A stretch of 64,000 nt of DNA from an uncultured cyanobacterium (GCA_963718615.1 OY970368.1:4128001-4192000), one strand, 5' to 3'; shown: positions 137 through 51,969, counted from the first letter of the stretch. Notes: generated from the letters alone by a model not told the origin. Made by a program: numbers and translations.

Positions 137-3100
137 CTACCCAGAAATAGCGTATGACAGTGGAGTAGAGAGTTGTTGCTTTAACATTGCAGTACGGATC
201 GCCTCAGGCCATGGAGCAGGTATAGGCGTTCCATTGGCTTGACGATTTGCCCAAATCACCTCTTGCGCTCCAGTGTGTAGCTTTTCTAGCTCTTGGTTGG
301 GCAGTTCTCGGAAAAACTCAAAGTTGAATACAGCACCACATTCAGTCATCTGCTGAAGATAGAGATGAACACGAACTTTATCAAAGGGCATTGCCTCTCG
401 CATATAGTTCATGTGGCTATAGAGTGGTATTACCTCCCCTTGTGCAGTTGAGACTCGAAAATATTGAGGTGCCAACGAGTACAGAAAAAGATCAATGGCC
501 CGACCTTGCCAAATGAAATAATTACCGTAGTAAACGTTTCCAACTAGGTTAGCCTCTTCCAATGTAGTTTGGAAAACTTCAGTAAAGATCAAATCCCCAT
601 AGGGTACTTGTGGAGATTGGTAATGGATAGGACCTAAGTCAATTTCAGTCAAACTAGAGGGCAAAGCCTGTAATGTATCCGTTGGTGATTCTTTCAAATC
701 AATCGCTGCGGGAGATTTCGCTGCGAACTGAGCCATGTAGTCTTGCAAGTAATCTGGCATCGCTTCTGGTGAAGGAATACCATAGCTGAGTAACCGAACC
801 CATGTGGCATTCACTTCTGCCATGGCAATCCGCTCTAAGCTTTGATCGGATAATACTTTACAAAATTCGATGTAGGTTGCGAACGAAGAGTTAACAAGGT
901 TACCCAGCCAACACCGGGCTTGGATCGTGTCGTAGGTGGTGGCTTCTCCTAAGACCCGTAAGCTCACACTGTTGGTTACCATACCGAATTGACCACTAAG
1001 GAAGTCGGGAATCAGTTTTTCTGCCATGCTTCGCATGGGTAATTCCCGAATTTTTCCAACCCAACTGATGTACTGGGATACAGTTACTTTGCGACTGATG
1101 CTACATCCTTCTTTGAAAGTGACTGGAAAACGCTTCTCGTAGACGGGTTGGTTTTGGGGACCATCTTCCGTAATTCGAGTTCGATGTTCCCCTGGACGAA
1201 TGATTCCATAGGGATCGATGTAGTTCTCTTCTCCTTGGGTTAACGGATTGACCTGCACGAGTCCACGCTCAGATTGCTCCACGACCACTGCCAGCATTCG
1301 CTTAGGATGACGGGTGAGTTGCAAGGGGAGAGTTAAGACGTAGTAATTCGCTTGGGGGGTCTGAGCTTTCAGAAGGACTACACTGCCCTCACGCTGTTCG
1401 ATCTGGAGGGTAACTTCAAGGCCATTGAAAGCCTTATGAGTTGCCTCCAGAGCTGACCACACCCTAGTGCCCGCCACATCACAATCGTCACCGGATGCAA
1501 TGAGCTGATTAACGATTGTGGATCGAGCCTGACTCAACAACGCGACCCAATCCGCTTGGGAACGATGCTCAATGGACTCGATATCACAGCCTTGAGGGGT
1601 TGCTGCAACGCTACAGATACAGTAGTGATCATCGTGGGACAGCGAGAGTGAGGGCGGTAACTTTAGATCTTGAAACACCTTTCCCGTCAAATAGGGTTGA
1701 CCAGAACGATGGGTTCTAATGGCAAAGTCAAGGTCAGCCTTATCTGAGTCAAGGGCAAGAGTCTTTTGGATGGCCCGTTCAACAATACTTTTTTCAACCT
1801 GTCGGCGCTTTTTTTTGCTCTGTGCGCCTAGGGCGGGAGCATAGCCCAAGGCCATGATAGGGGAAATAAGGCCCATTTGATTGCAGGATATGCTGAGAGC
1901 TTGTTGCAAATTCATCTGATCTCGCTGCTCTGGCATAGCCAATTCCGCTGCGGTCGGATTCTCGGGATGCTCTTCCAAGATTCTCAGTCGATATCCCTGC
2001 AAATGCTCGACGATCGCCCCAAGTTCATTAGTAGCGATGACTTCACAAATATATTCCTTGTCGATTTTTTCCTTGAGAATAGCGGTGATGAGCCGTCGGC
2101 CTTCTCCTGTAGCAGGATTTTGGCAGAAATCGATCCGTTTGATTTCAACAGGGAGACAAATATCTTGAGGAATATTGAGCTGCATGCACTGAAGCAGAAC
2201 ATCCCGAAAATAGGGGTCACCTAGGAGAAAAGCACTGCCATGACCGATGGGAAATCCAGTTTCTTGTAGGTCCGTTGAAGTCTGAGCATGGGATTCCAGT
2301 AGACTCTGTTCTCGACTGAGGGAGAAGATCTGATCCATTTGCTGAAACAAGTTACCCTGGAACAGCAAACTTCCATAGAGATCTCGTTTGGGTTCAATGG
2401 CTAATGCTTGACCCAGTTCGTGTTTTAGGGGTTGACTGGATTGCCGTTTTCCGAGGACCAAGGTTGCAGAAAAATGATCGGCTTGAAATCCAGTTTGTTC
2501 AGTTCGAATCCCAACTTTAATGGCGCGTTCTCCCTCGGCATTCAGTTCAGCCACTTCTGCGTGGATTTCGATGACTACGCCGGAGTTCGGATCCACGACC
2601 ACAGGGCGGCGCAGGGAAATGTTTTCAAAACGAGCGATCGCAGGCTCGGTCTCACCAACCACTACTGCCGCCGCTTGAGCCATAGCTTCTAGGCCAAACA
2701 CGGTGGGAAAAAGATAGGAACCTCGCCAGATATGGTCCTTGATGTATAGATCTCGTTCCAAATTCAGATGGGTCCGAACGGTCAATTCTACCCCAGGCTC
2801 CAGATACCGAATCTGTTCAATAAACCGAAGGTTATCCGTTGCAATCTGAGGTAAGGGTGACCAGGTGTCTAACCCCCCCAGGGGCGCTGCAATGACAACT
2901 TGTTGGACGCCGGGGTTACGGTGGAAGAGTTTGACACAGCGTTCAATCCCTTCCTGAGGAGAGATGGCACCAATTCCCATGCGTTCCAGATTTTTGACGC
3001 TGCCCATGCGGGCCCCCATGCCCACTTCATCCCAAACACTATAAGCCAAGGAGATGATTTGGGTCTCTGGATGTAAATGGGCAAAGCGTTGTAGGAGTAA

Positions 3101-5323
3101 GTTTAAGGTTTCATTGGCAAAGCCATACCAACTGTTTCCAGGCATTCCGGTGACACCAATAATGGAGGTGAAGGCCAGAAAGAGTTTAGGAGGGCAATCC
3201 GCCATTGTCTGCAATAGATTCTGAGCTCCGATCAGTTTCGGGCTCACTTCTGCCTGAGCGGATTCTAGGCTAACTTGCTCAACGCGACGGGGCGTGTTCA
3301 AACCAGCGCCATGGATCACACCGGTCACGGGACCCAGGTCTGTCTTGATAGTCTGGAGCAGGGCTTCAACGGATGCGAGGTTGGTAATATCACAGCAATA
3401 GTATTGAGCGGACAGATCCCGTTGACGATATCGATCGAGAGTTTTGATAATTTCGCTTTTACCGGTTTCTAGGTCTGGTGTAGGTAGAGGGGAACGACCA
3501 ACGAGGGCCATTTTTGCACCAGTGGATTCGGCGATCGCCAGGGCACATTCAGCCGTGATCCCCTTGGCACCTCCCGTTACAAGAATGACATCATCGCTAG
3601 TCCAAGACTGTTCTCTTGGTGTATAGTCAACGGGCTGTTGTAGCTGTGATTGAGGGACTCGACGGACCTGCTGGACATCGTAGCCTGCGGTGACGATGGG
3701 GTCTGCTCCGGACAGCTCCGTCATCACGAGCTCAGCTCCTACCGTGGGAGAGAGCGTAGCACACAGGTCGATAACCCTCACTCGCAAAGACAGGCGTTCT
3801 AGGTGCAAGCTACGCGCAAAAGCCGCAGCACAACAGGATTCTGGAGAAGGAGCGATCGCCTCATCGCTCCATTGAGTACCAAAATAACCTCCCCCAAATT
3901 GAACATAGGCCAAACAAAACTCTGGGCTATTATTGACCAGTATTGCCACACTTTTAAGCCTTGCAATCATCGACTCCAAGGGCAAAGGCGATAACTCTGC
4001 ATTGGAGTCAACAGGCTGCGGAAGAACAGCCACAATATGGGTATCGTTAGCCTGCTGCACCACATCTTGAGTAGACAACAGTTCCGCGAAGGTCAGGGTA
4101 GAAACCTCACCGCCTAGAGACCGAATCTGAAAGCCTAGGGCAGCGACAAACGGATCATCAGCAGTATCTGCAATCAAGCGAACTTGGGCCTGAGACCAAT
4201 TTTCGACGGATCGAGTTGGCACCGCTGCCTCTACATATTCAACTGCAAAGTTCCTCACCCATTGGCCCAATGTCGGACGATTCAATGGGGCAGATTGAAG
4301 ATTACTTTTGGCCTTTGAAGTCGCAACAAGCACCGCCTGAGTCAGAGCCGAAGCATCCTCCAAGGCGATTACCACATCTGCTAAAGTGGCATTCGCCAAG
4401 CTGGATGGATCTAGCTGACCATCAATCCCGAGCTGCTTTGCAGCCCTAGCAACGAGATCCGCTGCTTTGATCGAATCAAGGTTCAAATCATCAAGCAATC
4501 GCATCTCCATCGTTAGGGATGATTGGGGAAAGCCAGTACTCGCCTCCACCAAGTTCAACAGCATTTGCGATATGTTTTTCCCAGGGGGAACATTCGCGAG
4601 GGGAAGGGCGTCAATTCCCCTATCAGCTCCCCCATCAACCTTTGGGAGGGTGTCACAAATGGCTTTTGCCACCTCAGCCAACGTAGCATTTGCTAGGGCA
4701 GCGGGCTCCAAGTCTCCTGTGACTCCAAACTGCTTAGCCGTTAAAGCAACTACCTCCCCAGCCTTGATGGAATCAAGGTTCAAATCATCCAGTAGCCGTG
4801 AGTCTAAGCCAATGCTGTCCTTAGGATATCCAGTCTTGTCAACAATCAGGTTCACGAGAGTCGCAACAACCTGATCGTAAACAGATTGAGTCGGAACTGG
4901 AATGGGAACAGGCTGAGGAGAAACAGGTTGATGAGACAATACTGCACTGTCTACAGAAGAAGGCTTAAAGGCCGTCACAGGTTCTGCAAGAATTGAGCTC
5001 TTTAAACGGCCATTTTCATGATGGCGATCGCCATGGTTCCCATTATTATTTCCTTGATTAAAATAATGACCGTGGCCATTGAGGTTACCATTACTAACAC
5101 CATTTGTACTCCCATTAGAATCGTCACAAGGAACAGCATTGCCATTGCGATGATGATGTTCAATAGCAGTAGAACGACTATCACTATGATTACGGGAAAT
5201 CAGTTTTTGATGGGGCAATGTCCGCAAATCGGCGCGAATCACCTGAGCAAGGAATTCACCTCTAGTCGAAAAGTATTGAGAGAGTAGTTGAAGTATCTCT
5301 CGATCTAAATGATTATCCTTCAT
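137..5323 (-). CDS. Enediyne-type (PksE-like) iterative PKS, C-terminal subunit: ACP-ACP-KR-DH-PPTase-hotdog TE-hotdog TE
   Basis: Two ACPs (LLDDLNLDSIKA); KR (VTGGAKGIT, WYGFAN); DH (KDHIWRGSYLFP, LLGDPYFRD); PksE-style PPTase (SLSH...GCDIE...RVWSALEA); C-terminal EEANLVGNVYYGNYFIWQG resembles SgcE10/CalE7 thioesterases. ORF track starts at 5341; ATG at 5323 preceded by AGGA is preferred. Confidence 0.88.
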   Translation of the reverse strand: MKDNHLDREILQLLSQYFSTRGEFLAQVIRADLRTLPHQKLISRNHSDSRSTAIEHHHRNGNAVPCDDSNGSTNGVSNGNLNGHGHYFNQGNNNGNHGDRHHENGRLKSSILAEPVTAFKPSSVDSAVLSHQPVSPQPVPIPVPTQSVYDQVVATLVNLIVDKTGYPKDSIGLDSRLLDDLNLDSIKAGEVVALTAKQFGVTGDLEPAALANATLAEVAKAICDTLPKVDGGADRGIDALPLANVPPGKNISQMLLNLVEASTGFPQSSLTMEMRLLDDLNLDSIKAADLVARAAKQLGIDGQLDPSSLANATLADVVIALEDASALTQAVLVATSKAKSNLQSAPLNRPTLGQWVRNFAVEYVEAAVPTRSVENWSQAQVRLIADTADDPFVAALGFQIRSLGGEVSTLTFAELLSTQDVVQQANDTHIVAVLPQPVDSNAELSPLPLESMIARLKSVAILVNNSPEFCLAYVQFGGGYFGTQWSDEAIAPSPESCCAAAFARSLHLERLSLRVRVIDLCATLSPTVGAELVMTELSGADPIVTAGYDVQQVRRVPQSQLQQPVDYTPREQSWTSDDVILVTGGAKGITAECALAIAESTGAKMALVGRSPLPTPDLETGKSEIIKTLDRYRQRDLSAQYYCCDITNLASVEALLQTIKTDLGPVTGVIHGAGLNTPRRVEQVSLESAQAEVSPKLIGAQNLLQTMADCPPKLFLAFTSIIGVTGMPGNSWYGFANETLNLLLQRFAHLHPETQIISLAYSVWDEVGMGARMGSVKNLERMGIGAISPQEGIERCVKLFHRNPGVQQVVIAAPLGGLDTWSPLPQIATDNLRFIEQIRYLEPGVELTVRTHLNLERDLYIKDHIWRGSYLFPTVFGLEAMAQAAAVVVGETEPAIARFENISLRRPVVVDPNSGVVIEIHAEVAELNAEGERAIKVGIRTEQTGFQADHFSATLVLGKRQSSQPLKHELGQALAIEPKRDLYGSLLFQGNLFQQMDQIFSLSREQSLLESHAQTSTDLQETGFPIGHGSAFLLGDPYFRDVLLQCMQLNIPQDICLPVEIKRIDFCQNPATGEGRRLITAILKEKIDKEYICEVIATNELGAIVEHLQGYRLRILEEHPENPTAAELAMPEQRDQMNLQQALSISCNQMGLISPIMALGYAPALGAQSKKKRRQVEKSIVERAIQKTLALDSDKADLDFAIRTHRSGQPYLTGKVFQDLKLPPSLSLSHDDHYCICSVAATPQGCDIESIEHRSQADWVALLSQARSTIVNQLIASGDDCDVAGTRVWSALEATHKAFNGLEVTLQIEQREGSVVLLKAQTPQANYYVLTLPLQLTRHPKRMLAVVVEQSERGLVQVNPLTQGEENYIDPYGIIRPGEHRTRITEDGPQNQPVYEKRFPVTFKEGCSISRKVTVSQYISWVGKIRELPMRSMAEKLIPDFLSGQFGMVTNSVSLRVLGEATTYDTIQARCWLGNLVNSSFATYIEFCKVLSDQSLERIAMAEVNATWVRLLSYGIPSPEAMPDYLQDYMAQFAAKSPAAIDLKESPTDTLQALPSSLTEIDLGPIHYQSPQVPYGDLIFTEVFQTTLEEANLVGNVYYGNYFIWQGRAIDLFLYSLAPQYFRVSTAQGEVIPLYSHMNYMREAMPFDKVRVHLYLQQMTECGAVFNFEFFRELPNQELEKLHTGAQEVIWANRQANGTPIPAPWPEAIRTAMLKQQLSTPLSYAISG

Positions 5324-5330
5324 GATGGTC

Positions 5331-8300
5331 CTATTGAGCAAAAGAAACGAAATTCATATCAGCCTGAATGATTTCAGCTAGAAAATCTCCCCGACGGGCA
5401 AAGTAGTCCGACAAGACATCAAGAAATTCATCTTCGGTGAATTGTCTATTAGACGTAGGTTGCAGCAATTTGTCTGATGTTTCTACAGGGGTAAGCCCCA
5501 CATAGGCAGAGGAGAAAAAGGGTTGGGTCTCGGGGACCTGTAAAGGGTTTTCGCAGGGATTGCCAATGAATAGAAGCTTAGAGGGAGAAACGTATGGACG
5601 AACCATGCGATTTTCAAAAACCTTATTCCATTGAATCGCACCGCCGTAGATAAAAATGTTGGCAAGGAACGTATTGAAACTTAGGTCTTCTCCGGCTCTT
5701 GATTCCACCGAAAAAGCATCAGGAGGATTGCCATTGGTATTGGCCTGTACTAGTTTCGACAATACTTGCCCTGTCCCCACTTCAACCATCAGGTCACACC
5801 TGGAACTCATGGTGTTGATGAGTGCGATAAAATTGACCTGAGAGGTGAGTTGCTGAGCGAAGTATTCATGCAGCTTAGTTCCTGCTTCGACGGGCTGCCC
5901 CGTCATGGCAGAAATAATCGGGATATCCAGGGATGGTAATTGAAGAGGGATTGGAGCATTAGCCTTGATGTGGACCGCTGCCTCTTGCACCAGTGCAGAG
6001 TGAAACCCATTGGAAACCGCGAGCTGGCGAACGTATATGCTGCGTTCTGCGGCCAATTGCATCACTTGCTCCAGGCTGTGGTGATGCCCTGAGACAACGG
6101 TCTGCTGAGGATGGTTGATATTGGCAACAACGGCATAGCCTTGAACCTGTTGCAACAGCATTTCTGCCGTTGAGCGATCGCATCCCAAACTCACCATCGT
6201 CCCCGCTTGATCCTTCGGCAACAGAGTCGCTTTGCCACGAATGGCCGCGAACTGAATCAGGGTTTTTGCATCATAGGCACCAGCCGCGTAGAAGGCTGCT
6301 AACTCGCCCAAACTATGCCCCCCCACAGCGACAGGCCTGACTCCCAGTTGTATTAAATACCGATACCACAACAGCGAAGCTAAACAAATGGCAACGGGTG
6401 CAATATCAGCACGGGCCAAGGCCTGCTTCCAAACCTCTAACTCTTCCGAACTTGCCGCGCGGTCGATGGGGCGTAGCATATAGCCACTAATGGGCTCACA
6501 GCCAATTTCCGCCAGCCAACCATCCGCTTCTTGGAGCAACGTCTGCGCCCAGGGATGACGTTCGATCAAGACCCTCGCCATGTTGAGTTGTTGCGACCCC
6601 TGACCTGGAAAGAGGAAGGCCACGCGATCGTGTCGGATAGCATTACTAAGCCAAACTGTCGGCAATGGCTCCTGTACCCCTGTGAGCACCGTTCCCGGTG
6701 GGCAGGGCCGTTTTTTGGCTAAGTCCTGCAATTGCTCCAGTCGTTGTACCAAACCCTTGGGCGAATTTGCAATGACAGCAGCCCGAATCGGCTGGTGAGG
6801 ATTCACCTGTTGAGCTAAGTGCGCCGCCAAGTCTACCATTTCCGCTAGACTGATATCTTTGGCATCAACAGCAATAGCAGCTACTCGATCAATCAAAGCA
6901 GGAATGCTATCAGCGGTTAGAACAAATAATTCAGTTTCCTGATGAGAAACCAACAGCGCGCGCTCCGGCAACCTCGGTTTCCATCGATCCCTGGGCGGAT
7001 CCCCTGAGGTAATCGTCGCATGACAGTTAATCCCCCCAAAGCCCATGGCGGAGATTCCTGCGGTTAAGACTTCACTGGGTTGTCGCACCTCTCCCTGGAG
7101 GATGGGATAAACAGACTGGGCCACCGAATTAAAGATGGGATTGGGCTCTTTACAACCACAGGTGGGCGGCAAAATACGCTGATTGACCGCCATCACAGCC
7201 TTGATGAAGCCTCCCACACCCGCCGCCGCTTTTGTATGTCCAACCAATGATTTAAAAGATGTCAATCCCACTTTGCGTGGGGCTAGCTCCCCATCCGCAG
7301 CTAAGGCTAGGGCAATGGCTTCGACTTCCGTGCGATCGCCCACGGGAGTGCCAGTCCCATGTCCCTCAATGAAATCAAGTTGATGACTGCTATATCCAGC
7401 ACGCTCGTAGGCACGTCGCAAGGCCTTCGACTGACCGATTTTAGAGGGTGCCGTGATACCTCCCTTGCCATCGGAGGAAATGGCCCAGCCATTGAGCAAA
7501 GCATAAACATAATCTCCATCTCGGCGGGCATCTTCTAAGCGCTTCAGCACCACACAGCCACAGCCTTCCCCAGGGATAAAGCCGCTCGCAACGCGATCGT
7601 AAACGGTCATGTCTTGGGCGGTTAAAGCTCCAACCTTGGCAAAACCAATCAGCTCAAAGGTATCGAGACTAATATCTACGCCCCCGGCCAAAGCAATATC
7701 TAAATCGCCGTTGACGAGAGCATTAGCTGCTGTTGCGATAGCAATGAGAGAAGAAGAACAAGCCCCATCAACGGTGTAGCCCCCCCCCTTAAAATCAAAG
7801 AAGTTACAAACGCGACCGGCGATTGTATTGGAGAGTCCACCGGCTAAAGAATCTTCAGTAATGGGTGCGAATGCAGATTTATAAACCTCCTCCATCAAAG
7901 CAACGAGTTCTTCGGTGACGAGATCCGACATGCCCTTGGCCGCAGCGGCTGCACGCAGAGCACGTCTTACAAATGGCCAACGCAACCGGACAGTGGTCGA
8001 TCGAGTTTGCTCACCGGTCAATGTATTTCCTAGGACAAAACCAGTACGTTCCGTTGGAATAGTTTCTTTTGTGTAACCAGCATCTTCCAATGCTTTCATT
8101 GCTGTTTCCAAGGCCAGCCAATGCACAACATCCGTTGATTCAAATGCTGTTTTAGGAATGCGCCGCTTTACCCAATCAAATTCAAAGCCATCAATCACCG
8201 CTGCTCGGTCCCCGTAAGTCTTATCCATCGCAGCAGGATCGGGATCATAATAGTCTGCAATGGGAAGTCGAATGTCAAGGGACCGACGAAACTGTTGTCG

Positions 8301-8444
8301 CTTGGATAAAATGTTTTCCCAAAGCGATCGCAAATCACTAGCCCCAGGATAATGGCACCCCATACCCACGACAGCTATTTTGGGACTTGAATCTTTGAAA
8401 CCCGATTGAAGATCAGGCGTTTGAACAGTGCTCGAATCATTCAT
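5331..8444 (-). CDS. Enediyne-type (PksE-like) iterative PKS, KS-AT subunit
   Basis: KS motifs DGACSSS, EGHGTGT, GHTKAAAG; PksE-characteristic segments STDVVHWLAL, GNTLTGE...LRWPFVRR, EDSLAGGLSNTIAGR; AT motifs FPGQGSQ, GHSLG, GFHS. ATG at 8444 (ORF track 8459). Confidence 0.9.
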   Translation of the reverse strand: MNDSSTVQTPDLQSGFKDSSPKIAVVGMGCHYPGASDLRSLWENILSKRQQFRRSLDIRLPIADYYDPDPAAMDKTYGDRAAVIDGFEFDWVKRRIPKTAFESTDVVHWLALETAMKALEDAGYTKETIPTERTGFVLGNTLTGEQTRSTTVRLRWPFVRRALRAAAAAKGMSDLVTEELVALMEEVYKSAFAPITEDSLAGGLSNTIAGRVCNFFDFKGGGYTVDGACSSSLIAIATAANALVNGDLDIALAGGVDISLDTFELIGFAKVGALTAQDMTVYDRVASGFIPGEGCGCVVLKRLEDARRDGDYVYALLNGWAISSDGKGGITAPSKIGQSKALRRAYERAGYSSHQLDFIEGHGTGTPVGDRTEVEAIALALAADGELAPRKVGLTSFKSLVGHTKAAAGVGGFIKAVMAVNQRILPPTCGCKEPNPIFNSVAQSVYPILQGEVRQPSEVLTAGISAMGFGGINCHATITSGDPPRDRWKPRLPERALLVSHQETELFVLTADSIPALIDRVAAIAVDAKDISLAEMVDLAAHLAQQVNPHQPIRAAVIANSPKGLVQRLEQLQDLAKKRPCPPGTVLTGVQEPLPTVWLSNAIRHDRVAFLFPGQGSQQLNMARVLIERHPWAQTLLQEADGWLAEIGCEPISGYMLRPIDRAASSEELEVWKQALARADIAPVAICLASLLWYRYLIQLGVRPVAVGGHSLGELAAFYAAGAYDAKTLIQFAAIRGKATLLPKDQAGTMVSLGCDRSTAEMLLQQVQGYAVVANINHPQQTVVSGHHHSLEQVMQLAAERSIYVRQLAVSNGFHSALVQEAAVHIKANAPIPLQLPSLDIPIISAMTGQPVEAGTKLHEYFAQQLTSQVNFIALINTMSSRCDLMVEVGTGQVLSKLVQANTNGNPPDAFSVESRAGEDLSFNTFLANIFIYGGAIQWNKVFENRMVRPYVSPSKLLFIGNPCENPLQVPETQPFFSSAYVGLTPVETSDKLLQPTSNRQFTEDEFLDVLSDYFARRGDFLAEIIQADMNFVSFAQ

Positions 8445-8686
8445 CTTTAAGCATCCCAAAAGACAATCAAAATCACCTAATGAGTCTCGATTAAGCAGTC
8501 AGGCTAGAATGAATGAATCTCAAGGCATAGCCTCAAGGTATAGCCACTTAATTTACGACTAGCTACTACTACGAAATCACAGCACCAAATCCGGAAGAAC
8601 TCGGACTTCAAACAACAGGTAAATTAAGGATCAAAAAGTTTTTACTCAAGACCAAGAAGGCAATAGCATCTCCACCTCAATTTGTT

Positions 8687-8734: not shown

Positions 8735-8906
8735 ACAGAAAAGATGCGCACCCAAGCGACCAAACAAAATCACACGAATAAACGAGCGAACGTGTTCCTC
8801 CCTGTCATGGTATGCGTAAAGTTAACTGTAATTGAGTCAGAACGTTACGATAATGATCCAACAGAATGACTATCAAACATTGAAGAGAAGATTAGGGGAC
8901 AACATC

Positions 8907-9692
8907 ATGCAGACCCAGACAATAACCACAGAGCTGGGAGAGATCTCGGTTAGTCTCACACTCAGCCTCGATCCACAGGCCAAAGGACAGCCCCTTGTGT
9001 TTATGCATGGCATTTTTCTAGACAAGACGTTGTGGTTTGACTGCTCCAGAGCCTTTTCAGACCGTCAGCACATCTATATTGATATGCCTGCCCACGGTCA
9101 GAGCTCAGATGTGGGTCGCCCTTGGAGGCTGGAAGAATGCGTAGCTATGTTGATCCGAGTCCTAGATACCCTAAAGGTCGAAACCTGTATTGCGGTTGGT
9201 CACTCTTGGGGAGGCATGACGGCTTTACGGGCGGCAGCACAGCATCCTGAACGATTCAAAGCCCTATGCTTGTTTAATACACCTTTTCAAGCAGCCACTG
9301 GGATGCGCAGAGTTGGCTTTCACTTGCAAAAGTTCGTGGCTCGTTTTCAACGCTTCTATGCCCAACAGGCTGCTAAATCGATGTATTCCCAAACTTGTCG
9401 AGAGGCTCACCCTGAACTCTCACAACAGATGCAGGGGCGGCTTGCCGTAAGGTCAGGTCAGGAAATTGCACAGGTTATCGATGCGGTGATTCTCGGCGCG
9501 GGTGACTCAACCCCTCTGCTACAGCATTTACAAATTCCTATTTTATTTGTAATAGGTCAGTCAGACTTTGTCGGGATACCTCCCAGGGAGACGCTCATCG
9601 TTCCAGGGCGGCACATCAGCCCCCATGAGGCTCCTGAAGAGATCAGGTTGGCTATGCAATATTTTCTTAGCTCACTAGAGACATCTTTTTAG
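8907..9692 (+). CDS. Alpha/beta fold hydrolase
   Basis: HG oxyanion motif, DMPAHGQS, nucleophile elbow GHSWG, C-terminal catalytic His (GRHISPHE); ATG at 8907 after AGGGG (ORF track 8832). Confidence 0.88.
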   Translation: MQTQTITTELGEISVSLTLSLDPQAKGQPLVFMHGIFLDKTLWFDCSRAFSDRQHIYIDMPAHGQSSDVGRPWRLEECVAMLIRVLDTLKVETCIAVGHSWGGMTALRAAAQHPERFKALCLFNTPFQAATGMRRVGFHLQKFVARFQRFYAQQAAKSMYSQTCREAHPELSQQMQGRLAVRSGQEIAQVIDAVILGAGDSTPLLQHLQIPILFVIGQSDFVGIPPRETLIVPGRHISPHEAPEEIRLAMQYFLSSLETSF

Positions 9693-9739
9693 ATAATTGC
9701 GACCTAGGAGGTAGATCGACCTAAAAGGAGACAGAGGAT

Positions 9740-9761
9740 CTCTTGCGCGATCGCGCAAGAG
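9740..9761. terminator. Perfect 22-bp palindrome centred on HIP1; probable terminator/hairpin after the hydrolase
   Basis: CTCTTGCGCGA|TCGCGCAAGAG, about 50 bp downstream of the hydrolase stop. Confidence 0.45.
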
Positions 9762-10186
9762 GTTTAGATTCAAATGGCTTGATCCGATAGCACTTGAAAA
9801 TGTCCGTCAAGCCTGAATTCACGCCAAAATGATCTTCTGTCGTGCAACACAATGACCAACCTTTATAAAGCAAAACTTAAAAATCTCAAGCCCATTCAGA
9901 ATCTCCCTGCCTAGGCTTTAGACTTTTCTATCCAATCAAGAAAACGGCAGAACCCTCTAAAGACAGGCCTTACGAGCCTATTTCCTGACTTTTCATATTG
10001 AAGAAAAACACAGAATACTTATCTTTTAGATCACTAAAAACCACAAAAAACAACTCTACAAAATCTCTAATTGGCGAACAAAAATCCATTGGCCAGGTTG
10101 ACTTTTAAGGCGGCTTTTGCAACAATAATGCATGCGAGTCAGGTGCTGTTAGATATAGCTTGAGCGTGGCTCCGAGAGGCTAAGAA

Positions 10187-13100
10187 ATGAACGTGAAACA
10201 AAGTTTGCTGGCGATCGTTGGAATGGCCTGTCGGTTTCCAGGTGGCATTGATTCAGTTGTGGATCTAACTGATGCTCTCGAAAGTAAAATTAATGCAACC
10301 TGTGCTGTCCCTACCGATCGTTGGAATTCAAATTTTTATCATTCATCAGATTCCAAGTCGCGTGGGAAATCCTACATGCGTCGAGGGGCGTTTCTCAGGC
10401 ATGACATTTCTGAGTTTGATCCCTCATTTTTTGGTATTTCTCCCCGTGATGCTGAAAATATGGACCCTCAGCAGCGGACGCTGTTAGAAGTGGTATGGGA
10501 ATCTTTTGAAAATGCTGGCCTCTCTCTCCCGAGCTATGCGAGCAAAAGCGTTGGGGTATATGTGGGGGGATTCATGCTGGATCACATGATCAACCAAATG
10601 AGCCCTGGCAATCGTTCGATCATCAACCAGCACACCGCCACAGGCATGATGATGACGATGTTGTCCAATCGTATCTCCCACGTCTTCGATTTTCGGGGAC
10701 CCAGTCTGTCGATTGACACCGCTTGTTCCTCCTCCTTGGTGGCTTTTCACTATGCCTGTCAGGATCTATGGCGTGGCACGACCCAGATGGCAGTTGTGGG
10801 GGGGGTCAACATCATGCTGCGCCCGGAATACCCTATCGGCATGTGCAAGGGTCAGTTTTTATCCCGTGACGGTGAGTGCAAATCCTTTGATGAGCGGGCG
10901 GATGGCTACGGTCGGGGGGAGGGTGCTGGCATTGTTCTATTGAAACCTTTAGAGGCAGCCCTGGCGGATGGCGATCAAATTTTGGCCACCGTGCTGGGAA
11001 CCGGAATTAACCAAGATGGTCACACCTCGGGTATCTCCTTGCCCAATGGCGAAGCCCAGCGTGACTTAATTTATGACGTGTGGGATCGTTACCAGGTCGA
11101 TCCCACATCGGTCCGATATGTGGAATGCCACGGCACCGGAACAGCTGCAGGGGACCCCATTGAAGCAAGGGCCATTGGAGAGACCTATGGTCAGGCGCGC
11201 AAGGGGATTGCCCCTGTGGTCATTGGTTCGATCAAGAGCAATATTGGTCACACAGAGGCCGCCGCAGGAATTGCAGGCGTCATTAAGGCTGTGCTGACTT
11301 TGATGAATCGCAAGACCTATCCCCTGGCGAACCTACAGACCCCGAACTCCAAGATTCCCTTTCAAGATCTGAATCTTCAGTTATCCGACCAAATGATGGT
11401 GTTGAGTCAAGACCAAGAGCCATTCTGCGTCGCAGTCAATTCCTTTGGCTATGGCGGAACCAATGCTCATGCGATCCTCCAAACAGCACCGATCGCCACT
11501 AACGAGCAGGAGCTCGAATCAGCCCTCCAGCCGTCCCATGATCGATATCCCTGGGATCAGTCAACGAGCTCACCAGCCAAGCCGTTTCCCTTCTTTTTAC
11601 CCCTATCTGCCCGTAATCCAAAAGCCATTGGAGTACTGGCTAGCCGGTACCGGGAACTCTTAAGCAACGATCACATTTGCTTAGCGGATCTACTCTATTC
11701 GGCTTCTTTGCGGCGTACCCATCTATCCCATCGTGCCGTGGTGAAAGGGAACAGCCGGACAGAACTGCTGGCTGCCCTTGAAACCCTGAGCAACAACGAG
11801 GAAAACGACGACGTTATCCAGGGGGTTGAACCCTTTAAAGGTCACCGGAAACCGGTGTTTGTTTTTACAGGGATGGGACCTCAGCGTTGGGATATGGGGC
11901 GCGAGTTGTATCAACATAGTCCTATCTATCGCGCCGCCGTCGAAGAAGCGGATACCGTTTTTCAAGCGGTTGCCGGGTTTTCAATTCTGGCGGAAATGCT
12001 CAAGGATGAGCAGGGTTCACAAATTTCACGCACAGAAATTGCTCAACCGGCTAACTTAGTTTTACAAATTGGACTTTTGGCCGTGCTGAAAGCCGCAGGG
12101 GTTGAGCCCGGTGCTGTGGTTGGACATTCTGTGGGAGAACTGGGTTCCGCCTATGCTGCAGGTGTACTTAATCTAGAAGATGTGATGACGGTGGCCTACC
12201 ATCGAAGTCGTCTTCAGGCGACCCGAGCCGGTACGGGTGGAATGCTTGCAGTGGGGTTGGGTAAGGAGCAGGCCTTGGAAAGAATTGCCCCCTGCTCGGA
12301 TCGGGTTTCGGTGGCGGCGGTCAATAGTCCCTCCAGTGTGACATTGGCGGGTGATGCCCAGGCCCTAGAACAGTTGGCGAACGTCTTCACAGAGGAAGGA
12401 ATCTTCAATCGCCAGCTTACGGTCGAAGTCCCCTATCACAGCCCAATGATGGATCCGATCCTACAGCCTATGATTGAGGCCATGGCGCAGATCCGTCCCC
12501 AATACCCTCAGGTCGATCTGTACTCGACCGTAACGGGGGCAAGGGTGGAGGGCATTTCCTACGACGCTGAATACTGGACACTCAATACGCGTCAGTCTGT
12601 TGAATTTGCCGCTGCAATTTTCTCACTACTAGAGGACGGATACAATACGTTTCTTGAGGTTGGCCCCCACCCCGTCTTGGCCAATTCTATCCGGGACTGT
12701 ATCCGCAGTTCGGACAAAGACTGTCGAACCATTTTTACCTTAAATCGCAAGATGCCAGAGCTAGCTAGCCTGCATCGGGCGATCGCCAGCGTTTATACAT
12801 CGGGTTGTGAAATCAACTGGTCTATTCACAATGGCCAAGGACATTGGATCACGCTACCGAACTACCCCTGGCAACGGGAACGGCTCTGGGTGGAAAATGA
12901 CCGAGCCGCCCAAGATCGGTTGGCCGTCATGAGTGCCCCTATCCTAGGTTTGCAAGAAGCCCCGGCAACCCCTGCTTGGCGAAACGATTTTGAGCATGAA
13001 AGTGTCAAATATCTTAAGGATCACGTGATCACTGGCGTGCCTATTTTGCCGGCTGCGGCTTATATTGAGGCATTGTTGGAGCTGTTAATGTCGAAGGCTA

Positions 13101-16100
13101 ATAGTCAAGCCGCGCTGATCCTCCGGAATCTCAAAATCTTTTCCCCCATGCTGCTCTCTAGCGATCGGGCGCTGGATGCGGTGACAACTTATGATCCTTT
13201 TACCCAATCGGCAACGATCCGCAGTCTGACCAACGGGTCACTGGGAGAGGGGCAAATCCACATTACCGCCAACCTTGCTTGGGCTAAAACGTACATTCCC
13301 AAACAGCAAGATTTACAGGCGCTCCTCGCGGCGGCTGAGCATCAGGTTGATATTCCCGAGTTTTATCAACGTTTGGATCGACTGAATCTCAGCTACGGGC
13401 CTGCTTTTCAGAGCATTCGTGCCATGCAGGTCAATCAGACCGAGCGACGGGTCGTCGCACGCATTGAAATGGATGCAAACCTCGCTCAAGCCTTAGACGG
13501 TTATGTGATTCATCCCTCCCTACTGGATGCTTGTTTCCAAACCCAGATTGCTTTGTTGAAGGTTCTGGAAACGACCTATTTACCGACTGGTTTTCAGGAA
13601 ATGTGTGTCTATAGCACCCAACTCCCTGAGAGCATCTGGTGCTTAACCGAACTGATAGAACAAACAGAACGACAGATTCTGTGCAATATTTCGCTTCTGG
13701 ATGAGGAGGGCCGATGTTTGGCCGTCATTCGAGGCATGTGCTCCACAGCAGCGGCTAAACAGGAACGAGTCGATCGGTTTGGTGACCCGGTAAAGCGCCA
13801 AATCTTGACCTACAACTGGTCCTACGGTGAGCCCCTGACCGAGCCCAAGCGTTTGGGTTATTGGTTGGTGGTGGGTGCGGATGTTCAAATAACCCAAAAA
13901 ACCAGCAAGAATCTGGAGCAGTATGGAGCGATCCAGGCGTTTCCGGTTGTTCTTCGGGCTCAAGCACTAGGGAGCGATCCCCCGACAGAGGCAGTCGCCC
14001 TCGCTCAGGTCGAAACAACGGCAGATGCAACTCGCCTGTTGGAGCATTATTCCAGCTTGGACGGTATCGTTTTTCTTCACGGTTTGGCCGCCACACCGAA
14101 CTCTGACGATCCCACAGGGGAGCGGGCGATCGCACAACTCATCGCCTTTTCCCAAGCGCTGCTCCAGCGATCGGACAGCCACCGCCCTCGAATCTATACC
14201 GTGACTCAAGGGGCCTTTTCGGTCAAGGAGCACGATACCCTCATCCAACCCAGTCAGTCTGCCATTAATGGTTTTGTACGGGTGGCGTTCAATGAACTCG
14301 AAGGGTTTCGTTTTAGTTCCATTGACCTCCCTGGCAAGATTTCTCCAGAGATCTGGGATAGCTTAACTATGGAGTTACTCTGCGATAGCCGCCACGACGA
14401 AGTCGCCCTGCGTGGTCGCTTACGGTTGGTGAGCGAACTGACAGACAGTCCCCTTCTGACTGAAGATCGTATTCAATATGTCGGCATTGACGATACCCAT
14501 CCCATCAAGGTTCGTCCCCTCAAGGCTGATACAGAAAGTATCGGCGGGGCTCGAATCTTGTCAGCTCCTCCGGCACCGCTGGGAACCGATGACATTCAGT
14601 TACGGATCGAAGCAGTCTTGGCTCCCTATCAATTACTCACTGAAGAGCCGGCCCTCTACGAAAGTCAACCGGTTGTTGAAGTCGTAGCTGAAGTCATCGG
14701 CGTCGGGTCTGAGGTGAATGATTTGCAACCGGGTCTACGAGTCTGTGGCTATGCCCCCACCGAGATTGCCAGTCATATTTCCGGTCCTCGGGAGCAATTT
14801 GCGTTAGTTCCCATTCGCCCAGAGACCAACGCCGCTAAACTCGTGAGTACGATGGGTCTGACAACTCGGGCTCAACTGGCGATCGCCAATCAGGATCTAA
14901 GCAAAAATGATCAGGCATTGATCTATACAGACCCCCTGGGATTAGTCATCGCTGACATCCTCGATCGGCAAGGGATCAAGGTTATCCTCATCTCCGAAGC
15001 CCAAGACAAGCTCGAATTCAAGGTTCTGGAGCGCTACGTTGTTGTGTCATTTTGCCCAGAAGAGCTGCACGAGGTCTTTGAACAAACCAGAGAAAGTAAG
15101 GGTTTTGATCTGTTGGTTGCTCCCTTAGGCCGTTGGGTCCAGACCTTTGATTTCAGTAGCCTGCGGCAGGGTGGCAGCATCATTGATACGGACAGTGACG
15201 CAACCCCAATCGCCCTAGGACAGCATCAGTTAACCAGAACTGATCTGAAGATGTATTTGCAGCGCCCTGCTCGTCTTCAGCAGATGCTCACACAAGTCGT
15301 GGAACAGTTTGAGCAGCAGCAGATGGCACCACTACAAAGTCTGACCGTTTCGGTTCATGATATTGCTTGGCAAAAGCTTAGCTTGTCCAGCGATATTCGG
15401 ACTGTCGTGATGACCTTTAGTACCCATGGTCAAGAGTTGCCCGTGGTCCAGAAAGACATCGCAGTTTTTGATCCCAATGGTACCTATTTCATTACAGGTG
15501 GTTTTGGCGGCTTTGGTCAAAAAACGGCTGAGTGGCTGGTTTCCAAAGGCGTTCGCCACCTGGTGCTGACGGGGCGTACGGGAGCAAACACCCCAGCGCG
15601 CCAGGCCATCCTTCAGCATCTCAGGGAACTGGGTGCAACGGTCAAGGCAGTAGCCTGCGACACCGCTGATCTGGAAGCTCTCAGCGAACTGTTTGCCGAC
15701 ATTCAGGCAACTTGTCCGCCGCTCAAGGGCATTTTCCACTCCGGTGCGCTGATCTTAGATCAGCCGATTGAGGCCATTGACCCCAATATCTACCAAAAGG
15801 TGATGCGTAGCAAAGCCTTGGGCGCATGGAACTTGCACCAGCTCACCCTGTCCCTGTCCCTGTCCCTTGATCACTTTGTGTTGTACTCCTCCGTGGCCAA
15901 CCTGGTCGGGAACACCCGTCAAGCGGCCTACAGTGCAGCCAATGGATTCCTCAACGGCTTAGCCCATCTTCGTCGGACGCAGGGGCTGGCGGGAACTAGC
16001 GTTAACTGGGGGGCGATCGCCGATGTCGGGGTTGTTGCCCAGGATGAAACCCTGGAGCAATTCCTACGGTACACCGGTCTTAGAGGAATCAGCTCCGCAG

Positions 16101-16570
16101 AGGCCTTGGATGTCCTGGATGTTGCCCTAGCCAGAGATGTGACCCAGTTTGGCGTTTCCATGATTTCCAGTTGGGCCGACTGGTCTCGCTATGAAACGCG
16201 TGGCGCAACTTCACCTCGCTTCCAAAGCCTAATCGCCAGTGATACCCAAGACAAAGACCATTCAATGCGCACGGTCCTCAAAGAGGAATTAAGGGGTCTT
16301 AAAGAGGAAGAAAAAGTTGAGTTACTCGGCTCCTTACTGCTGGAAATTATTGCGTCTGTTCTCAAGTCTGACCCAGAAGGAATCCCCTTAGATACGGTCG
16401 TCAGCCAATTGGGTGTCGACTCATTAATGGCGACCGAACTACAGCTCCAGATTGACACCCAGTTAGGACTCAGCATTTCCATCATGGAACTTCTTGGAGA
16501 TACAACCATTCGCTCTTTTGCGCGGAGTTCACTAACCTCACTCTTCACAGAAGAAGCCAGCCTGGTCTAG
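10187..16570 (+). CDS. Reducing type I PKS: KS-AT-DH-ER(degenerate)-KR-ACP
   Basis: KS (DTACSSS, ECHGTGT, GHTEAAAG); AT (GHSVG, PYHS); DH (DHVITGVPILP, HPSLLDACFQ); ER-like region lacking the GGVG motif; KR (ITGGFGGFG, YSAAN); ACP (LGVDSLMA). Confidence 0.93.
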   Translation: MNVKQSLLAIVGMACRFPGGIDSVVDLTDALESKINATCAVPTDRWNSNFYHSSDSKSRGKSYMRRGAFLRHDISEFDPSFFGISPRDAENMDPQQRTLLEVVWESFENAGLSLPSYASKSVGVYVGGFMLDHMINQMSPGNRSIINQHTATGMMMTMLSNRISHVFDFRGPSLSIDTACSSSLVAFHYACQDLWRGTTQMAVVGGVNIMLRPEYPIGMCKGQFLSRDGECKSFDERADGYGRGEGAGIVLLKPLEAALADGDQILATVLGTGINQDGHTSGISLPNGEAQRDLIYDVWDRYQVDPTSVRYVECHGTGTAAGDPIEARAIGETYGQARKGIAPVVIGSIKSNIGHTEAAAGIAGVIKAVLTLMNRKTYPLANLQTPNSKIPFQDLNLQLSDQMMVLSQDQEPFCVAVNSFGYGGTNAHAILQTAPIATNEQELESALQPSHDRYPWDQSTSSPAKPFPFFLPLSARNPKAIGVLASRYRELLSNDHICLADLLYSASLRRTHLSHRAVVKGNSRTELLAALETLSNNEENDDVIQGVEPFKGHRKPVFVFTGMGPQRWDMGRELYQHSPIYRAAVEEADTVFQAVAGFSILAEMLKDEQGSQISRTEIAQPANLVLQIGLLAVLKAAGVEPGAVVGHSVGELGSAYAAGVLNLEDVMTVAYHRSRLQATRAGTGGMLAVGLGKEQALERIAPCSDRVSVAAVNSPSSVTLAGDAQALEQLANVFTEEGIFNRQLTVEVPYHSPMMDPILQPMIEAMAQIRPQYPQVDLYSTVTGARVEGISYDAEYWTLNTRQSVEFAAAIFSLLEDGYNTFLEVGPHPVLANSIRDCIRSSDKDCRTIFTLNRKMPELASLHRAIASVYTSGCEINWSIHNGQGHWITLPNYPWQRERLWVENDRAAQDRLAVMSAPILGLQEAPATPAWRNDFEHESVKYLKDHVITGVPILPAAAYIEALLELLMSKANSQAALILRNLKIFSPMLLSSDRALDAVTTYDPFTQSATIRSLTNGSLGEGQIHITANLAWAKTYIPKQQDLQALLAAAEHQVDIPEFYQRLDRLNLSYGPAFQSIRAMQVNQTERRVVARIEMDANLAQALDGYVIHPSLLDACFQTQIALLKVLETTYLPTGFQEMCVYSTQLPESIWCLTELIEQTERQILCNISLLDEEGRCLAVIRGMCSTAAAKQERVDRFGDPVKRQILTYNWSYGEPLTEPKRLGYWLVVGADVQITQKTSKNLEQYGAIQAFPVVLRAQALGSDPPTEAVALAQVETTADATRLLEHYSSLDGIVFLHGLAATPNSDDPTGERAIAQLIAFSQALLQRSDSHRPRIYTVTQGAFSVKEHDTLIQPSQSAINGFVRVAFNELEGFRFSSIDLPGKISPEIWDSLTMELLCDSRHDEVALRGRLRLVSELTDSPLLTEDRIQYVGIDDTHPIKVRPLKADTESIGGARILSAPPAPLGTDDIQLRIEAVLAPYQLLTEEPALYESQPVVEVVAEVIGVGSEVNDLQPGLRVCGYAPTEIASHISGPREQFALVPIRPETNAAKLVSTMGLTTRAQLAIANQDLSKNDQALIYTDPLGLVIADILDRQGIKVILISEAQDKLEFKVLERYVVVSFCPEELHEVFEQTRESKGFDLLVAPLGRWVQTFDFSSLRQGGSIIDTDSDATPIALGQHQLTRTDLKMYLQRPARLQQMLTQVVEQFEQQQMAPLQSLTVSVHDIAWQKLSLSSDIRTVVMTFSTHGQELPVVQKDIAVFDPNGTYFITGGFGGFGQKTAEWLVSKGVRHLVLTGRTGANTPARQAILQHLRELGATVKAVACDTADLEALSELFADIQATCPPLKGIFHSGALILDQPIEAIDPNIYQKVMRSKALGAWNLHQLTLSLSLSLDHFVLYSSVANLVGNTRQAAYSAANGFLNGLAHLRRTQGLAGTSVNWGAIADVGVVAQDETLEQFLRYTGLRGISSAEALDVLDVALARDVTQFGVSMISSWADWSRYETRGATSPRFQSLIASDTQDKDHSMRTVLKEELRGLKEEEKVELLGSLLLEIIASVLKSDPEGIPLDTVVSQLGVDSLMATELQLQIDTQLGLSISIMELLGDTTIRSFARSSLTSLFTEEASLV

Positions 16571-16615
16571 CGATTCAGGCTGGCGATTCAGACTAGCGAT
16601 TCAGAAGCGATTCAG
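16570..16615. repeat. Short tandem repeat GCGATTCAG x4
   Basis: Copies at 16570, 16583, 16596 and 16607, starting at the PKS stop codon. Confidence 0.8.
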
Positions 16616-16667
16616 AAACCTTAAAGGCTTTGTTCGTCAACCTATCCAGAACGATTGAGTACCCCCC

Positions 16668-18002: not shown

Positions 18003-18040
18003 GGACTTTAATCGATACAAATATTGTCCCGGTCAAGACC

Positions 18041-19072: not shown

Positions 19073-19093
19073 GGGCAAATCGCTGTTCGTCGG

Positions 19094-20242: not shown

Positions 20243-20286
20243 GGTCAACACTACTCATTTTCTCTAGATTTTTAGCATTAAAATTC

Positions 20287-42120: not shown

Positions 42121-42164
42121 ACAGGGAGAACGGGGAGAACTGGAACTGGCAAGTGGCAAAGATT

Positions 42165-51964: not shown

Positions 51965-51969
51965 GACAA

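Follow-up and report, generated by a model that had tools for sequence, protein, structure and literature searches.

What becomes of the chain built by an enediyne-type polyketide synthase (PKS) in a cyanobacterium? The question is raised by a 64,000-nucleotide (nt) stretch from an uncultured cyanobacterium (GCA_963718615.1 OY970368.1:4128001-4192000; hereafter the window), in which two long minus-strand open reading frames (ORFs), here called genes A and B, occupy positions 137-8459. To our knowledge, synthases of this type (PksE, or PKSE) have been encountered almost only as the first step to enediyne antitumour antibiotics in actinomycetes. Judged from their domain content, genes A and B together specify one iterative type I PKS of the PksE (enediyne-PKS-like) type, each contributing a subunit. 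Our favoured reading, which we hold with moderate confidence, is that they and the halogenases encoded beside them constitute a self-priming, self-releasing iterative synthase of a conjugated polyene, which would then be halogenated to an undescribed metabolite other than an enediyne.

Domain content and ketosynthase affiliation

Gene A (ORF 5331-8459; 5331..8444 from the ATG that is also the start of the database form P0003) encodes a protein of 1037 amino acids (aa) with a ketosynthase (KS) and an acyltransferase (AT) domain. The KS (7020..8381, on the minus strand like all features of the two genes; P0001 residues ~27-480) matches Pfam PF00109 and PF02801 (5.6e-55 and 3.3e-31) and carries the active-site motif DGACSSS as well as PksE-type insert motifs. 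The AT (5745..6626; P0001 residues ~612-905) has a GHSLGE motif and matches Acyl_transf_1 in Pfam (1.4e-22) and FabD in NCBIfam (3.6e-41). Gene B (ORF 137-5341; 137..5323 from the ATG of the database form P0123) encodes 1728 aa, ordered as two acyl carrier proteins (ACPs), a ketoreductase (KR), a dehydratase (DH), a phosphopantetheinyl transferase (PPTase) and a double-hotdog thioesterase (TE). Its tandem ACPs (4352..4879; residues ~155-230 and 255-330), each with LDDLNLDSIKA, are represented by two PP-binding stretches in Pfam and by NCBIfam ACP matches at residues 156-208 and 258-328; their best solved relative is the CalE8 ACP (2l9f; 6.2e-5). In addition, Pfam identifies the KR catalytic domain (3062..3589; residues ~585-760; 9.8e-28), two PKS dehydratase halves in the DH (1952..2794; residues ~850-1130; PKS_DH_N 1.1e-08, PS-DH 1.9e-15) and one 4HBT_2 stretch (7e-06). 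A preliminary description of the stretch, made from the sequence alone, had given the same outer limits (137..8444), had proposed a doubled ACP and had placed KR and DH in the second gene; the profile scan with Pfam and NCBIfam bears out this domain content. The catalytic motifs are all intact (the KS cysteine in DGACSSS, GHSLGE in the AT, the two DSIK serines of the ACPs and HxxxGxxxxP in the DH), and both DSIK motifs and the DH motif H870xxxG874xxxxP879 are invariant in 38 relatives of gene B. Between the N-terminal element of gene B (see below) and the first ACP lies an Asn/Gly/His-rich low-complexity linker (window 4967-5194, minus strand; residues ~50-125), a region that is poorly conserved in relatives.

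Both genes are collinear with SgcE. By BLASTP, SgcE residues 3-967 are covered by gene A at 41% identity (1022 aa) and residues 943-1899 by gene B at 28% identity (1082 aa), the latter alignment spanning the ACP, KR, DH and the C-terminal PPTase region; the AT, KR and DH align with their respective SgcE domains. Past the part that matches SgcE, gene B extends into two hotdogs, so that the additions relative to SgcE are a second ACP, the Asn/Gly/His-rich linker and C-terminal tandem E10/E7-type hotdogs. The PksE domain order KS-AT-ACP-KR-DH-PPTase is found across A and B taken together, distributed over two polypeptides instead of one.

Three KS stretches that the preliminary description had singled out as diagnostic of PksE (GNTLTGE, LRWPFVRR and EDSLAGGLSNTIAGR) have identical or near-identical counterparts in 3/3 canonical actinomycete PksE and differ in 3/3 PfaA-type KSs, whose corresponding region is 8 residues shorter. 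When the KS was compared by tblastn with a plasmid collection, Gloeothece verrucosa PCC 7822 ranked first (73%), followed by SgcE of Streptomyces globisporus C-1027 on plasmid SGLP1 (53%) and its relatives (51-53%). We further placed the KS in a tree of 60 rows, consisting of 41 relatives from protein searches, 4 canonical actinomycete PksE taken from annotated records, 12 PfaA-type, 1 PfaC-like and 2 modular KSs (LG+G4, quick search, support by the SH-like approximate likelihood ratio test, SH-aLRT; one CLF-like row excluded). The PfaA-type rows were taken from loci matching NCBIfam TIGR02813, 11 of them above the cut-off and one (G037) just below it, and include one from the same genome as the window. 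All 45 PksE-like rows, that is, the 4 canonical ones and 41 non-actinomycete ones with the window KS among them, form one clade (SH-aLRT 100), and the 12 PfaA-type rows form a separate one (SH-aLRT 99). The window KS falls in a sister clade made up of the 41 non-actinomycete rows (SH-aLRT 99), apart from the 4 canonical ones. Long branches meet at the deep nodes, as flagged by the tool, and the deep order is less safe than clade membership. The ranking of KS identities (64-87%, followed by 51-53% to the four canonical PksE, 37-39% to the twelve PfaA-type and 28-31% to modular KSs) agrees with the tree. Thus, the phylogenetic check named in the preliminary description places the KS with canonical PksE and not with PfaA/Hgl synthases. 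A whole-protein search of the PDB with gene A was dominated by KS-AT entries of modular PKSs and returned no enediyne KS among the best 60 of 134 matches.

This placement bears on the idea that A and B form a PfaA/HglE-type secondary-lipid synthase, making polyunsaturated fatty acids (PUFAs) or heterocyst-glycolipid-like products, rather than a PksE. Tandem ACPs are typical of PfaA, and TIGR02813, the PfaA model, is the second-best NCBIfam match of gene A and the best of gene B. Enediyne and PUFA KSs also share one supported cluster in published trees (PMC4247773). However, the TIGR02813 scores (396.6 bits for gene A and 186.6 bits for gene B) fall far short of the cut-off of 1010.1, and the true PfaA/HglE-type multi-gene locus of this genome lies elsewhere (G000:C1 ~592000-606000, L003-L010), where the same model reaches 1366.7 bits, or 2002.6 bits with in-frame neighbours. 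Genes A and B, moreover, have no enoylreductase, no FabA-like DH pair and no KS-chain length factor (KS-CLF), carry PPTase and E10-type TE domains, and are parted from the PfaA family in the KS tree at SH-aLRT 99-100. We consider a PfaA/HglE-type synthase very improbable here. Within the PfaA-type locus itself, two of the matches enclose stop codons (one TAA, one TAG) that mark gene boundaries or breaks.

The split between the genes and its junction elements

Gene A ends in a TAG stop (5333-5331), and the ATG of gene B follows after 7 nt in a different frame. Two ORFs in different frames at such a short distance, for which fused single-chain relatives exist, might result from a frameshift in the assembly or from the decay of a single-chain PksE into a pseudogene. 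To see how general the arrangement is, we compared the window's own domains by BLAST with each of the 120 best relatives of either gene and tallied the architectures, the gene-A set being of similar length. Of the gene-A relatives, 99 consist of KS-AT only, 17 of KS-AT-ACP, and 4 are partial. The gene-B relatives comprise 50 proteins with ACP(1-3)-KR-DH-PPTase-TE and no KS-AT (48 of them with at least two ACPs), 21 with KR-DH-PPTase-TE, 47 single chains running from KS-AT through TE, and 2 partial sequences; both hotdog halves are present in 119 of the 120. The break point therefore recurs, as a KS-AT protein of ~1000-1045 aa in those 99 relatives, from many genera and independent assemblies. 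In addition, each side of the junction bears its own conserved element with invariant residues, the catalytic motifs are intact, and the genome is one closed 6.1 Mb contig. We give the frameshift or pseudogene explanation practically no weight: the split is a genuine inherited architecture, not an assembly artefact, and it is common. The preliminary description had located the split after the AT, which the stop, the new ATG in another frame and the abundance of the KS-AT-only form corroborate; it had also named a frameshift as the finding that would undo its proposal, and the preservation of the split in dozens of independent assemblies disposes of that concern.

On the KS tree, split-after-AT forms and forms fused with the TE interleave in a single clade of 18 rows (SH-aLRT 94). 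The split label changes four times, although the starred branches force only one change. Three architectures occur within one clade: split after the AT, split after the ACP, and fully fused with the TE. Longer relatives include single-chain cyanobacterial forms without a TE and others with a fused CrtI-like FAD domain or PilZ domain. The PilZ domain (PF07238) is found at the N-terminus of some single-chain PksE-like proteins (P0293, P0299, P0313 and others), with the KS beginning at around residue 111-115, which hints at cyclic di-GMP control of a polyene synthase in these cases.

Named relatives come from Microcystis, Anabaena, Nostoc, Okeania, Moorea, Gloeothece, Scytonema, Prochloron and Phormidesmis and, outside the cyanobacteria, from Gemmataceae and Thermoactinomycetaceae. 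In an even sample of the phylum, a double-hotdog relative (expectation value E <= 1e-30) is present in 8 of 401 species genomes and 6 of 155 genera, counting the window's own, which makes for a patchy distribution.

The junction itself is marked by a repeated sequence pattern, L..LS.YF..RG.FLA..I.AD, which is found both in the last 30 residues of gene A (5346..5429; pattern match at residue 1013) and in the first 40 residues of gene B (5222..5299; pattern match at residue 17). Y1019, R1023, F1026 and D1034 of the gene A element are invariant in 42 KS-AT relatives, and so are Y23, R27, F30, I35 and D38 of the gene B element in the 38 gene-B relatives. Two fused relatives (P0140 and P0158) contain two tandem copies of the element between the AT and the ACP. 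These homologous elements of ~25 residues, C-terminal in A and N-terminal in B, are probably docking elements that join the subunits. A complex prediction for the gene A tail (residues 985-1042) with the gene B head (residues 7-60), run without controls, scored 0.07 and 0.06 against a mark of 0.32 and is silent on binding either way. In the BLAST alignment with SgcE, the gene A tail is paired with the residues that open the SgcE ACP. The element might have originated as a relic of ACP helix I; this idea has its basis in the tail of that one alignment, and we do not press it.

Priming, release and further processing of the chain

Two activities that would allow the synthase to act on its own are encoded at the end of gene B, for which we obtained an AlphaFold2 model (residues 1144-1734; alignment of 53 sequences; mean predicted local distance difference test score, pLDDT, of 88). 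The model has three compact parts. The first (model residues 1-216, pLDDT mostly >85) corresponds to the integrated PPTase (1268..1912; residues ~1144-1358). It resembles PptT of Mycobacterium tuberculosis (4qvh; VIA Z 15.5, root-mean-square deviation (rmsd) 3.2, 181 residues aligned) and an Sfp-type enzyme (7ed2; VIA Z 15.3). Consistently, the region aligns with the C-terminal PPTase domain of SgcE. Over the 38 gene-B relatives, G1251, W1295 and E1299 are invariant and D1253, E1255 and K1303 are conserved in at least 90%; we take these six to be PPTase motif residues. The fold match and the alignment with SgcE uphold the earlier assignment of a PksE-type PPTase to the second gene.

The remaining two parts are hotdogs. 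When the last 359 residues of gene B were scanned alone, Pfam returned two 4HBT_2 stretches. For the second hotdog, TE_C (167..628; residues ~1572-1725), the three best solved relatives found by phmmer are the enediyne thioesterases CalE7 (2e-15), SgcE10 (1.2e-13) and DynE7 (3.5e-12), and the model (residues 441-580) superimposes on DynE7 with VIA Z 17.5 and rmsd 2.0 over 137 of 145 residues, at 26% identity. The first, TE_N (707..1192; residues ~1384-1545), appears as a diverged copy of the enediyne E10/E7-type thioesterase. Its phmmer matches are weaker (5vpj 2e-4, SgcE10 4.7e-4, DynE7 0.03, CalE7 0.11), with 6 of 7 PDB matches belonging to the enediyne TE family; the model displays the hotdog strands and helix, and VIA gives Z 15.3 to the hotdog 3ck1.

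Taken together (model residues 245-556), TE_N and TE_C match double-hotdog acyl-ACP thioesterases with VIA Z 22-23 over 236-255 residues and a Foldseek E of ~1e-14. In this model, the two hotdogs are better read as one pseudo-dimeric, Fat-like double-hotdog thioesterase than as two thioesterases. The preliminary description had spoken of a TE fused twice: two hotdogs of the SgcE10/CalE7 family are indeed present, but they model as one double-hotdog unit instead of two separate enzymes. Plant FatA/FatB and bacterial double-hotdog thioesterases likewise have two hotdog halves per chain that form a pseudo-dimer, although these enzymes share only 8-13% identity with the gene B pair. The double hotdog of gene B most likely arose by an independent duplication and fusion, because both halves derive by sequence from the single-hotdog E10/E7 family of enediyne pathways.

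Alignments with CalE7 and 5vpj revealed how the two halves differ at positions 19, 29 and 37 of CalE7, where Asn19, Tyr29 and Arg37 are, we assume, the functional or catalytic residues. TE_C keeps Asn19 and Tyr29 and has Ile at position 37; TE_N keeps Tyr29, Arg37 and Glu38 and has Ser at position 19. The residues thus kept do not vary over the 38 relatives: Y1424, R1432 and E1433 in TE_N and N1598, Y1608 and R1614 in TE_C. This complementary retention fits a single composite active site at the pseudo-dimer interface.

The enediyne-type KS, ACP, PPTase and TE, together with the name 'enediyne polyketide synthase' given to relatives by some sources, could point to a genuine warhead pathway, in which the polyene is converted into an enediyne core that is 9- or 10-membered. 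Two papers (PMC9992847, PMC10760148) describe a minimal PKSE cassette as conserved across enediyne clusters. In agreement, E3, E4, E5, E and E10 occur together in the annotated records of S. globisporus, S. finlayi and S. clavuligerus. In the window's genome, a complete single contig, however, neither the E3 family (DUF1702, PF08012) nor the E4 family (UnbV_ASPIC, PF07593) has a match, while the S. clavuligerus record, as positive control, scores 460 and 42.7 bits, respectively. The S. clavuligerus E3 and E4 proteins used as queries likewise found no match in the genome. For E5 (UnbU), a single S. clavuligerus query found no match there, and no family-level search could be made, as no Pfam or NCBIfam model covers UnbU. 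With the KS also lying in the non-actinomycete sister clade outside the canonical rows, we regard a warhead pathway as highly unlikely. Without E3 and E4, and with no match for E5, the synthase is, by gene content, not an enediyne maker. The enediyne-precursor option left in the preliminary description is accordingly disfavoured, on the absence of the E3 and E4 families with working controls and on one query for E5.

Instead, halogenase genes adjoin the synthase. Three paralogous PltA-like flavin-dependent halogenases of ~600 aa are encoded on the same strand as gene B (minus) outside the window (L038 15807-17720, 13563-15407 and 11583-13367; G000:C1 ~4121583-4127720). The preliminary description could not take them into account because the genes lie just beyond the window. 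In the 18 kb beyond gene B that we examined in the window's own genome, the three halogenase genes are followed by glgB, and the cluster therefore ends there. All three proteins contain GAGFAG (GxGxxG) and WLWMIP (WxWxIP) motifs and match Pfam Trp_halogenase (PF04820) with 45, 38 and 55 bits against a cut-off of 21; none of them reaches an NCBIfam model. One paralogue searched against the PDB matched only flavin halogenases (6 of 6), PltA being the best (1.7e-17). The catalytic lysine is presumably that of KIGES. Each of the three proteins has a C-terminal extension of ~200 residues that contains hydrophobic stretches.

We then counted distinct halogenase ORFs at 25 related loci; beside the window's own surroundings, the sequences examined were 24 loci encoding double-hotdog relatives and the Gloeothece record. 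Three halogenase paralogues are present at 8 of the 25 loci and two at 12, several of which are cut by contig ends; the other five (two from Okeania, one from Hormoscilla, one from an uncultured cyanobacterium and one from a Bacteroidetes metagenome-assembled genome (MAG)) have none nearby. At all carrier loci except L017, which has one halogenase on each side, the halogenases lie downstream of the synthase. Synthase and halogenases together form the core conserved unit. Its carriers include bloom-forming and symbiotic cyanobacteria such as Microcystis, Okeania, Prochloron, Anabaena and Phormidesmis.

From these components, a route can be proposed. The integrated PPTase would prime both ACPs and the AT would load malonyl units, after which KS, KR and DH would act in each cycle to build an ACP-bound conjugated polyene. 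The cis double-hotdog thioesterase would release this chain, which by analogy with PKSE/TE pairs might have C15-C16, as in pentadecaheptaene. The two or three downstream PltA-like halogenases may act on the ACP-bound or the released polyene, and the product would be an undescribed polyene-derived metabolite, probably halogenated. A bolder version, which we put forward tentatively, is that a PksE, split or fused, combined with a cis double-hotdog TE and two to three PltA-like halogenases with long hydrophobic extensions represents a second way of processing the PksE polyene, independent of E3/E4/E5, that would lead to a so far undescribed class of halogenated linear polyenes or, after halogenation and elimination, of polyynes; the composite TE active site is a sub-claim of this proposal. 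A parallel may be drawn with true enediynes, in which a diiodotetrayne (an iodinated tetrayne) is reportedly an intermediate, to go by the title of a 2024 report by Gui.

Several points count against the proposed polyene route. The PPTase region, scanned alone (residues 1144-1375), matches the Pfam ACPS model with an E of 0.0035 and 17.8 bits, below the gathering score of 25. The release chemistry may be unlike that of CalE7, because Ile replaces Arg37 in TE_C and Ser replaces Asn19 in TE_N. Five of the 25 related loci lack a nearby halogenase, so that members of the family need not halogenate. Gene B and the three halogenase genes are set apart by spacers of ~200-470 nt, given which their co-transcription may be proposed only as putative. 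Chain length, release chemistry and halogenation are all features that we infer. Finally, in this lineage a loader-less modular PKS is encoded next door, and it could take over the chain in place of release by the TE.

This modular PKS is one of six genes on the plus strand of the window, assigned with Pfam and NCBIfam: an alpha/beta hydrolase (8832-9692), the PKS itself (KS-AT-DH-KR-ACP; 10187-16570), a BioF/serine-palmitoyltransferase-like acyltransferase (16668-18002), a quinone-reductase-like protein (17951-19072), a metallo-beta-lactamase (MBL)-fold protein (19094-20242) and a CrtI-like FAD oxidoreductase (20287-21912). The link of these divergent neighbours (8832..21912) to the synthase is uncertain. 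Those at 10187-21912 look like a pathway to an amino-ketone or amino-alcohol polyketide. They would suit a hybrid pathway in which the PksE-like pair supplies a (halo)polyenoyl starter to the divergent modular PKS and not a free hydrocarbon, the BioF/serine-palmitoyltransferase-like enzyme condenses the product of that PKS with an amino acid, tailoring falls to the enoyl-reductase-like, MBL-fold and CrtI-like proteins, and the fused TE serves for editing or alternative release. The modular PKS indeed begins with a KS at residue 9, without a loading module, and lies 1.7 kb from gene A across a shared divergent promoter region of 387 nt. A homologue of the acyltransferase (76-80% identity) lies ~11 kb from the cassette in both Phormidesmis genomes, a distance that holds if the numbered contigs correspond to those named in L015 and L016. 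By contrast, the Leptolyngbyaceae MAG, Microcystis and Anabaena, the other members of the 5 related genomes searched, have no adjacent homologue. None of the six neighbours occurs in the flanks of the 25 related loci, although these flanks reach only ~2.7 kb past gene A.

Along its entire length, the CrtI-like protein shows homology to the FAD domain fused at the C-terminus of 9/9 tested PksE-like proteins of ~3000 aa from other bacteria and an archaeon-labelled MAG (E 1e-19 to 3e-41, 22-27% identity). The match hints weakly that CrtI-like enzymes and PksE polyenes may be joined by a Rosetta-stone link; identities of 24-27% are, however, ordinary for the superfamily. Against the hybrid pathway also stand the conserved unit, which is the synthase plus halogenases, and the cis TE, whose polyene-releasing family favours release. 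We consider the hybrid pathway unlikely on balance and retain the release of a free, subsequently halogenated polyene as the preferred reading.

The window contains further genes farther from the synthase. Two large cadherin/Big_9/SdrD-B/RTX repeat proteins are encoded on the minus strand (29616-31952 and 43352-46735), and a 990-aa ORF at 32472-35444 has no Pfam match. On the plus strand, 36455-43058 encodes a two-partner secretion (TPS)-domain protein and, after it, a CHAT-TPR and a DUF928 protein, and 48292-54828 a fatty-acyl-AMP-ligase-like AMP-binding protein with a DIP2-like C-terminal domain and then two AAA_35 proteins, of which the second carries a fused CHASE2 sensor domain.

Relation to known systems

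Relatives of genes A and B have been noted before in several papers. Frangeul et al. 2008 (PMC2442094) reported from Microcystis aeruginosa PCC 7806 a PksE-like iterative PKS I cluster with three halogenases and unknown product. Calteau et al. 2014 (PMC4247773) distinguished a cyanobacterial 'KS enediyne clade' beside PUFA clades, Schorn et al. 2019 (PMC6520454) listed an enediyne type I PKS of Hormoscilla among clusters 'without predictable product structures', and Yancey et al. 2022 (bioRxiv 10.1101/2022.10.12.511943) reported a Lake Erie Microcystis cluster with an enediyne synthase. In a bloom metatranscriptome, Penn et al. 2014 (PMC4139720) assigned 100 KS reads to Microcystis 'PKS iterative' and 168 to 'NIES-843 enediyne'. 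In the literature searched, which mostly did not cover subscription journals, we found no product assignment for a cyanobacterial PksE-like cluster. Genes A and B belong to a widespread orphan family whose recognition in print dates from 2008. The preliminary description overrated the novelty of the arrangement, as the architecture is common in cyanobacteria and present in other phyla, and the Microcystis PksE-like PKS with its three halogenases had been published.

The Microcystis cluster belongs to the same family and has the same split, with relatives 58% identical to gene A and 51-52% identical to gene B and with halogenase paralogues directly downstream. It differs in that the copy described here resides in a Leptolyngbyaceae/Phormidesmis-like genome and is flanked by the modular PKS and acyltransferase, a flank that, of the 5 genomes searched, only the two Phormidesmis have in common with it. 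What our analysis adds is that the coupling to halogenases is conserved across genera, that the genome lacks E3 and E4 and yielded no E5, and that the architectures comprise three interconverting forms with conserved junction elements and a TE predicted to be pseudo-dimeric with complementary residue retention.

For this locus, the result is mostly confirmatory, and the main question is the product and not the architecture. A large non-actinomycete sister clade appears to have kept the polyene core and the releasing TE, to have lost or never had the warhead genes, and to be usually coupled to flavin halogenases. Solving the product would give a recurrent orphan cluster of harmful-bloom cyanobacteria its chemistry and would show the fate of a PksE polyene without E3-E5. 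The series of split and fused forms with conserved elements at the break is, moreover, a ready-made system for studying how the subunits of an iterative PKS dock and suits the study of how a trans thioesterase turns into a cis domain.

Among characterised enzymes, PltA-type halogenases share the GxGxxG and WxWxIP motifs with the three paralogues, and PltA acts on a carrier-bound substrate; the proteins found here differ in their length of ~600 aa, which includes the extension of ~200 residues with hydrophobic stretches, and in reaching no NCBIfam model. PfaA/HglE synthases have a related KS with an insert at the same place, tandem ACPs and an iterative KS-AT...KR-DH logic, as do A and B, whereas their KSs form a separate clade and the PPTase and E10-type TE are features of A and B.

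The closest parallels are provided by the canonical PKSE/TE pairs SgcE/SgcE10 (C-1027), CalE8/CalE7 (calicheamicin) and DynE8/DynE7 (dynemicin), which have the same domain order, the KS insert motifs and the same hotdog TE family, share a KS clade with the window synthase and, in CalE8, include the ACP closest to those of gene B. According to PMC9992847, a canonical PKSE and its TE produce 1,3,5,7,9,11,13-pentadecaheptaene. Unlike these synthases, A and B are two polypeptides instead of one, have two ACPs instead of one, and possess a KS from the sister clade. Their TE is fused in cis as a tandem diverged pair, whereas it is a free protein of 150 aa in the canonical pairs; in S. clavuligerus, for example, a separate 152-aa TE gene directly follows the PKS. 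Where canonical clusters have E3, E4 and E5, the A/B synthase is adjoined by halogenase genes.

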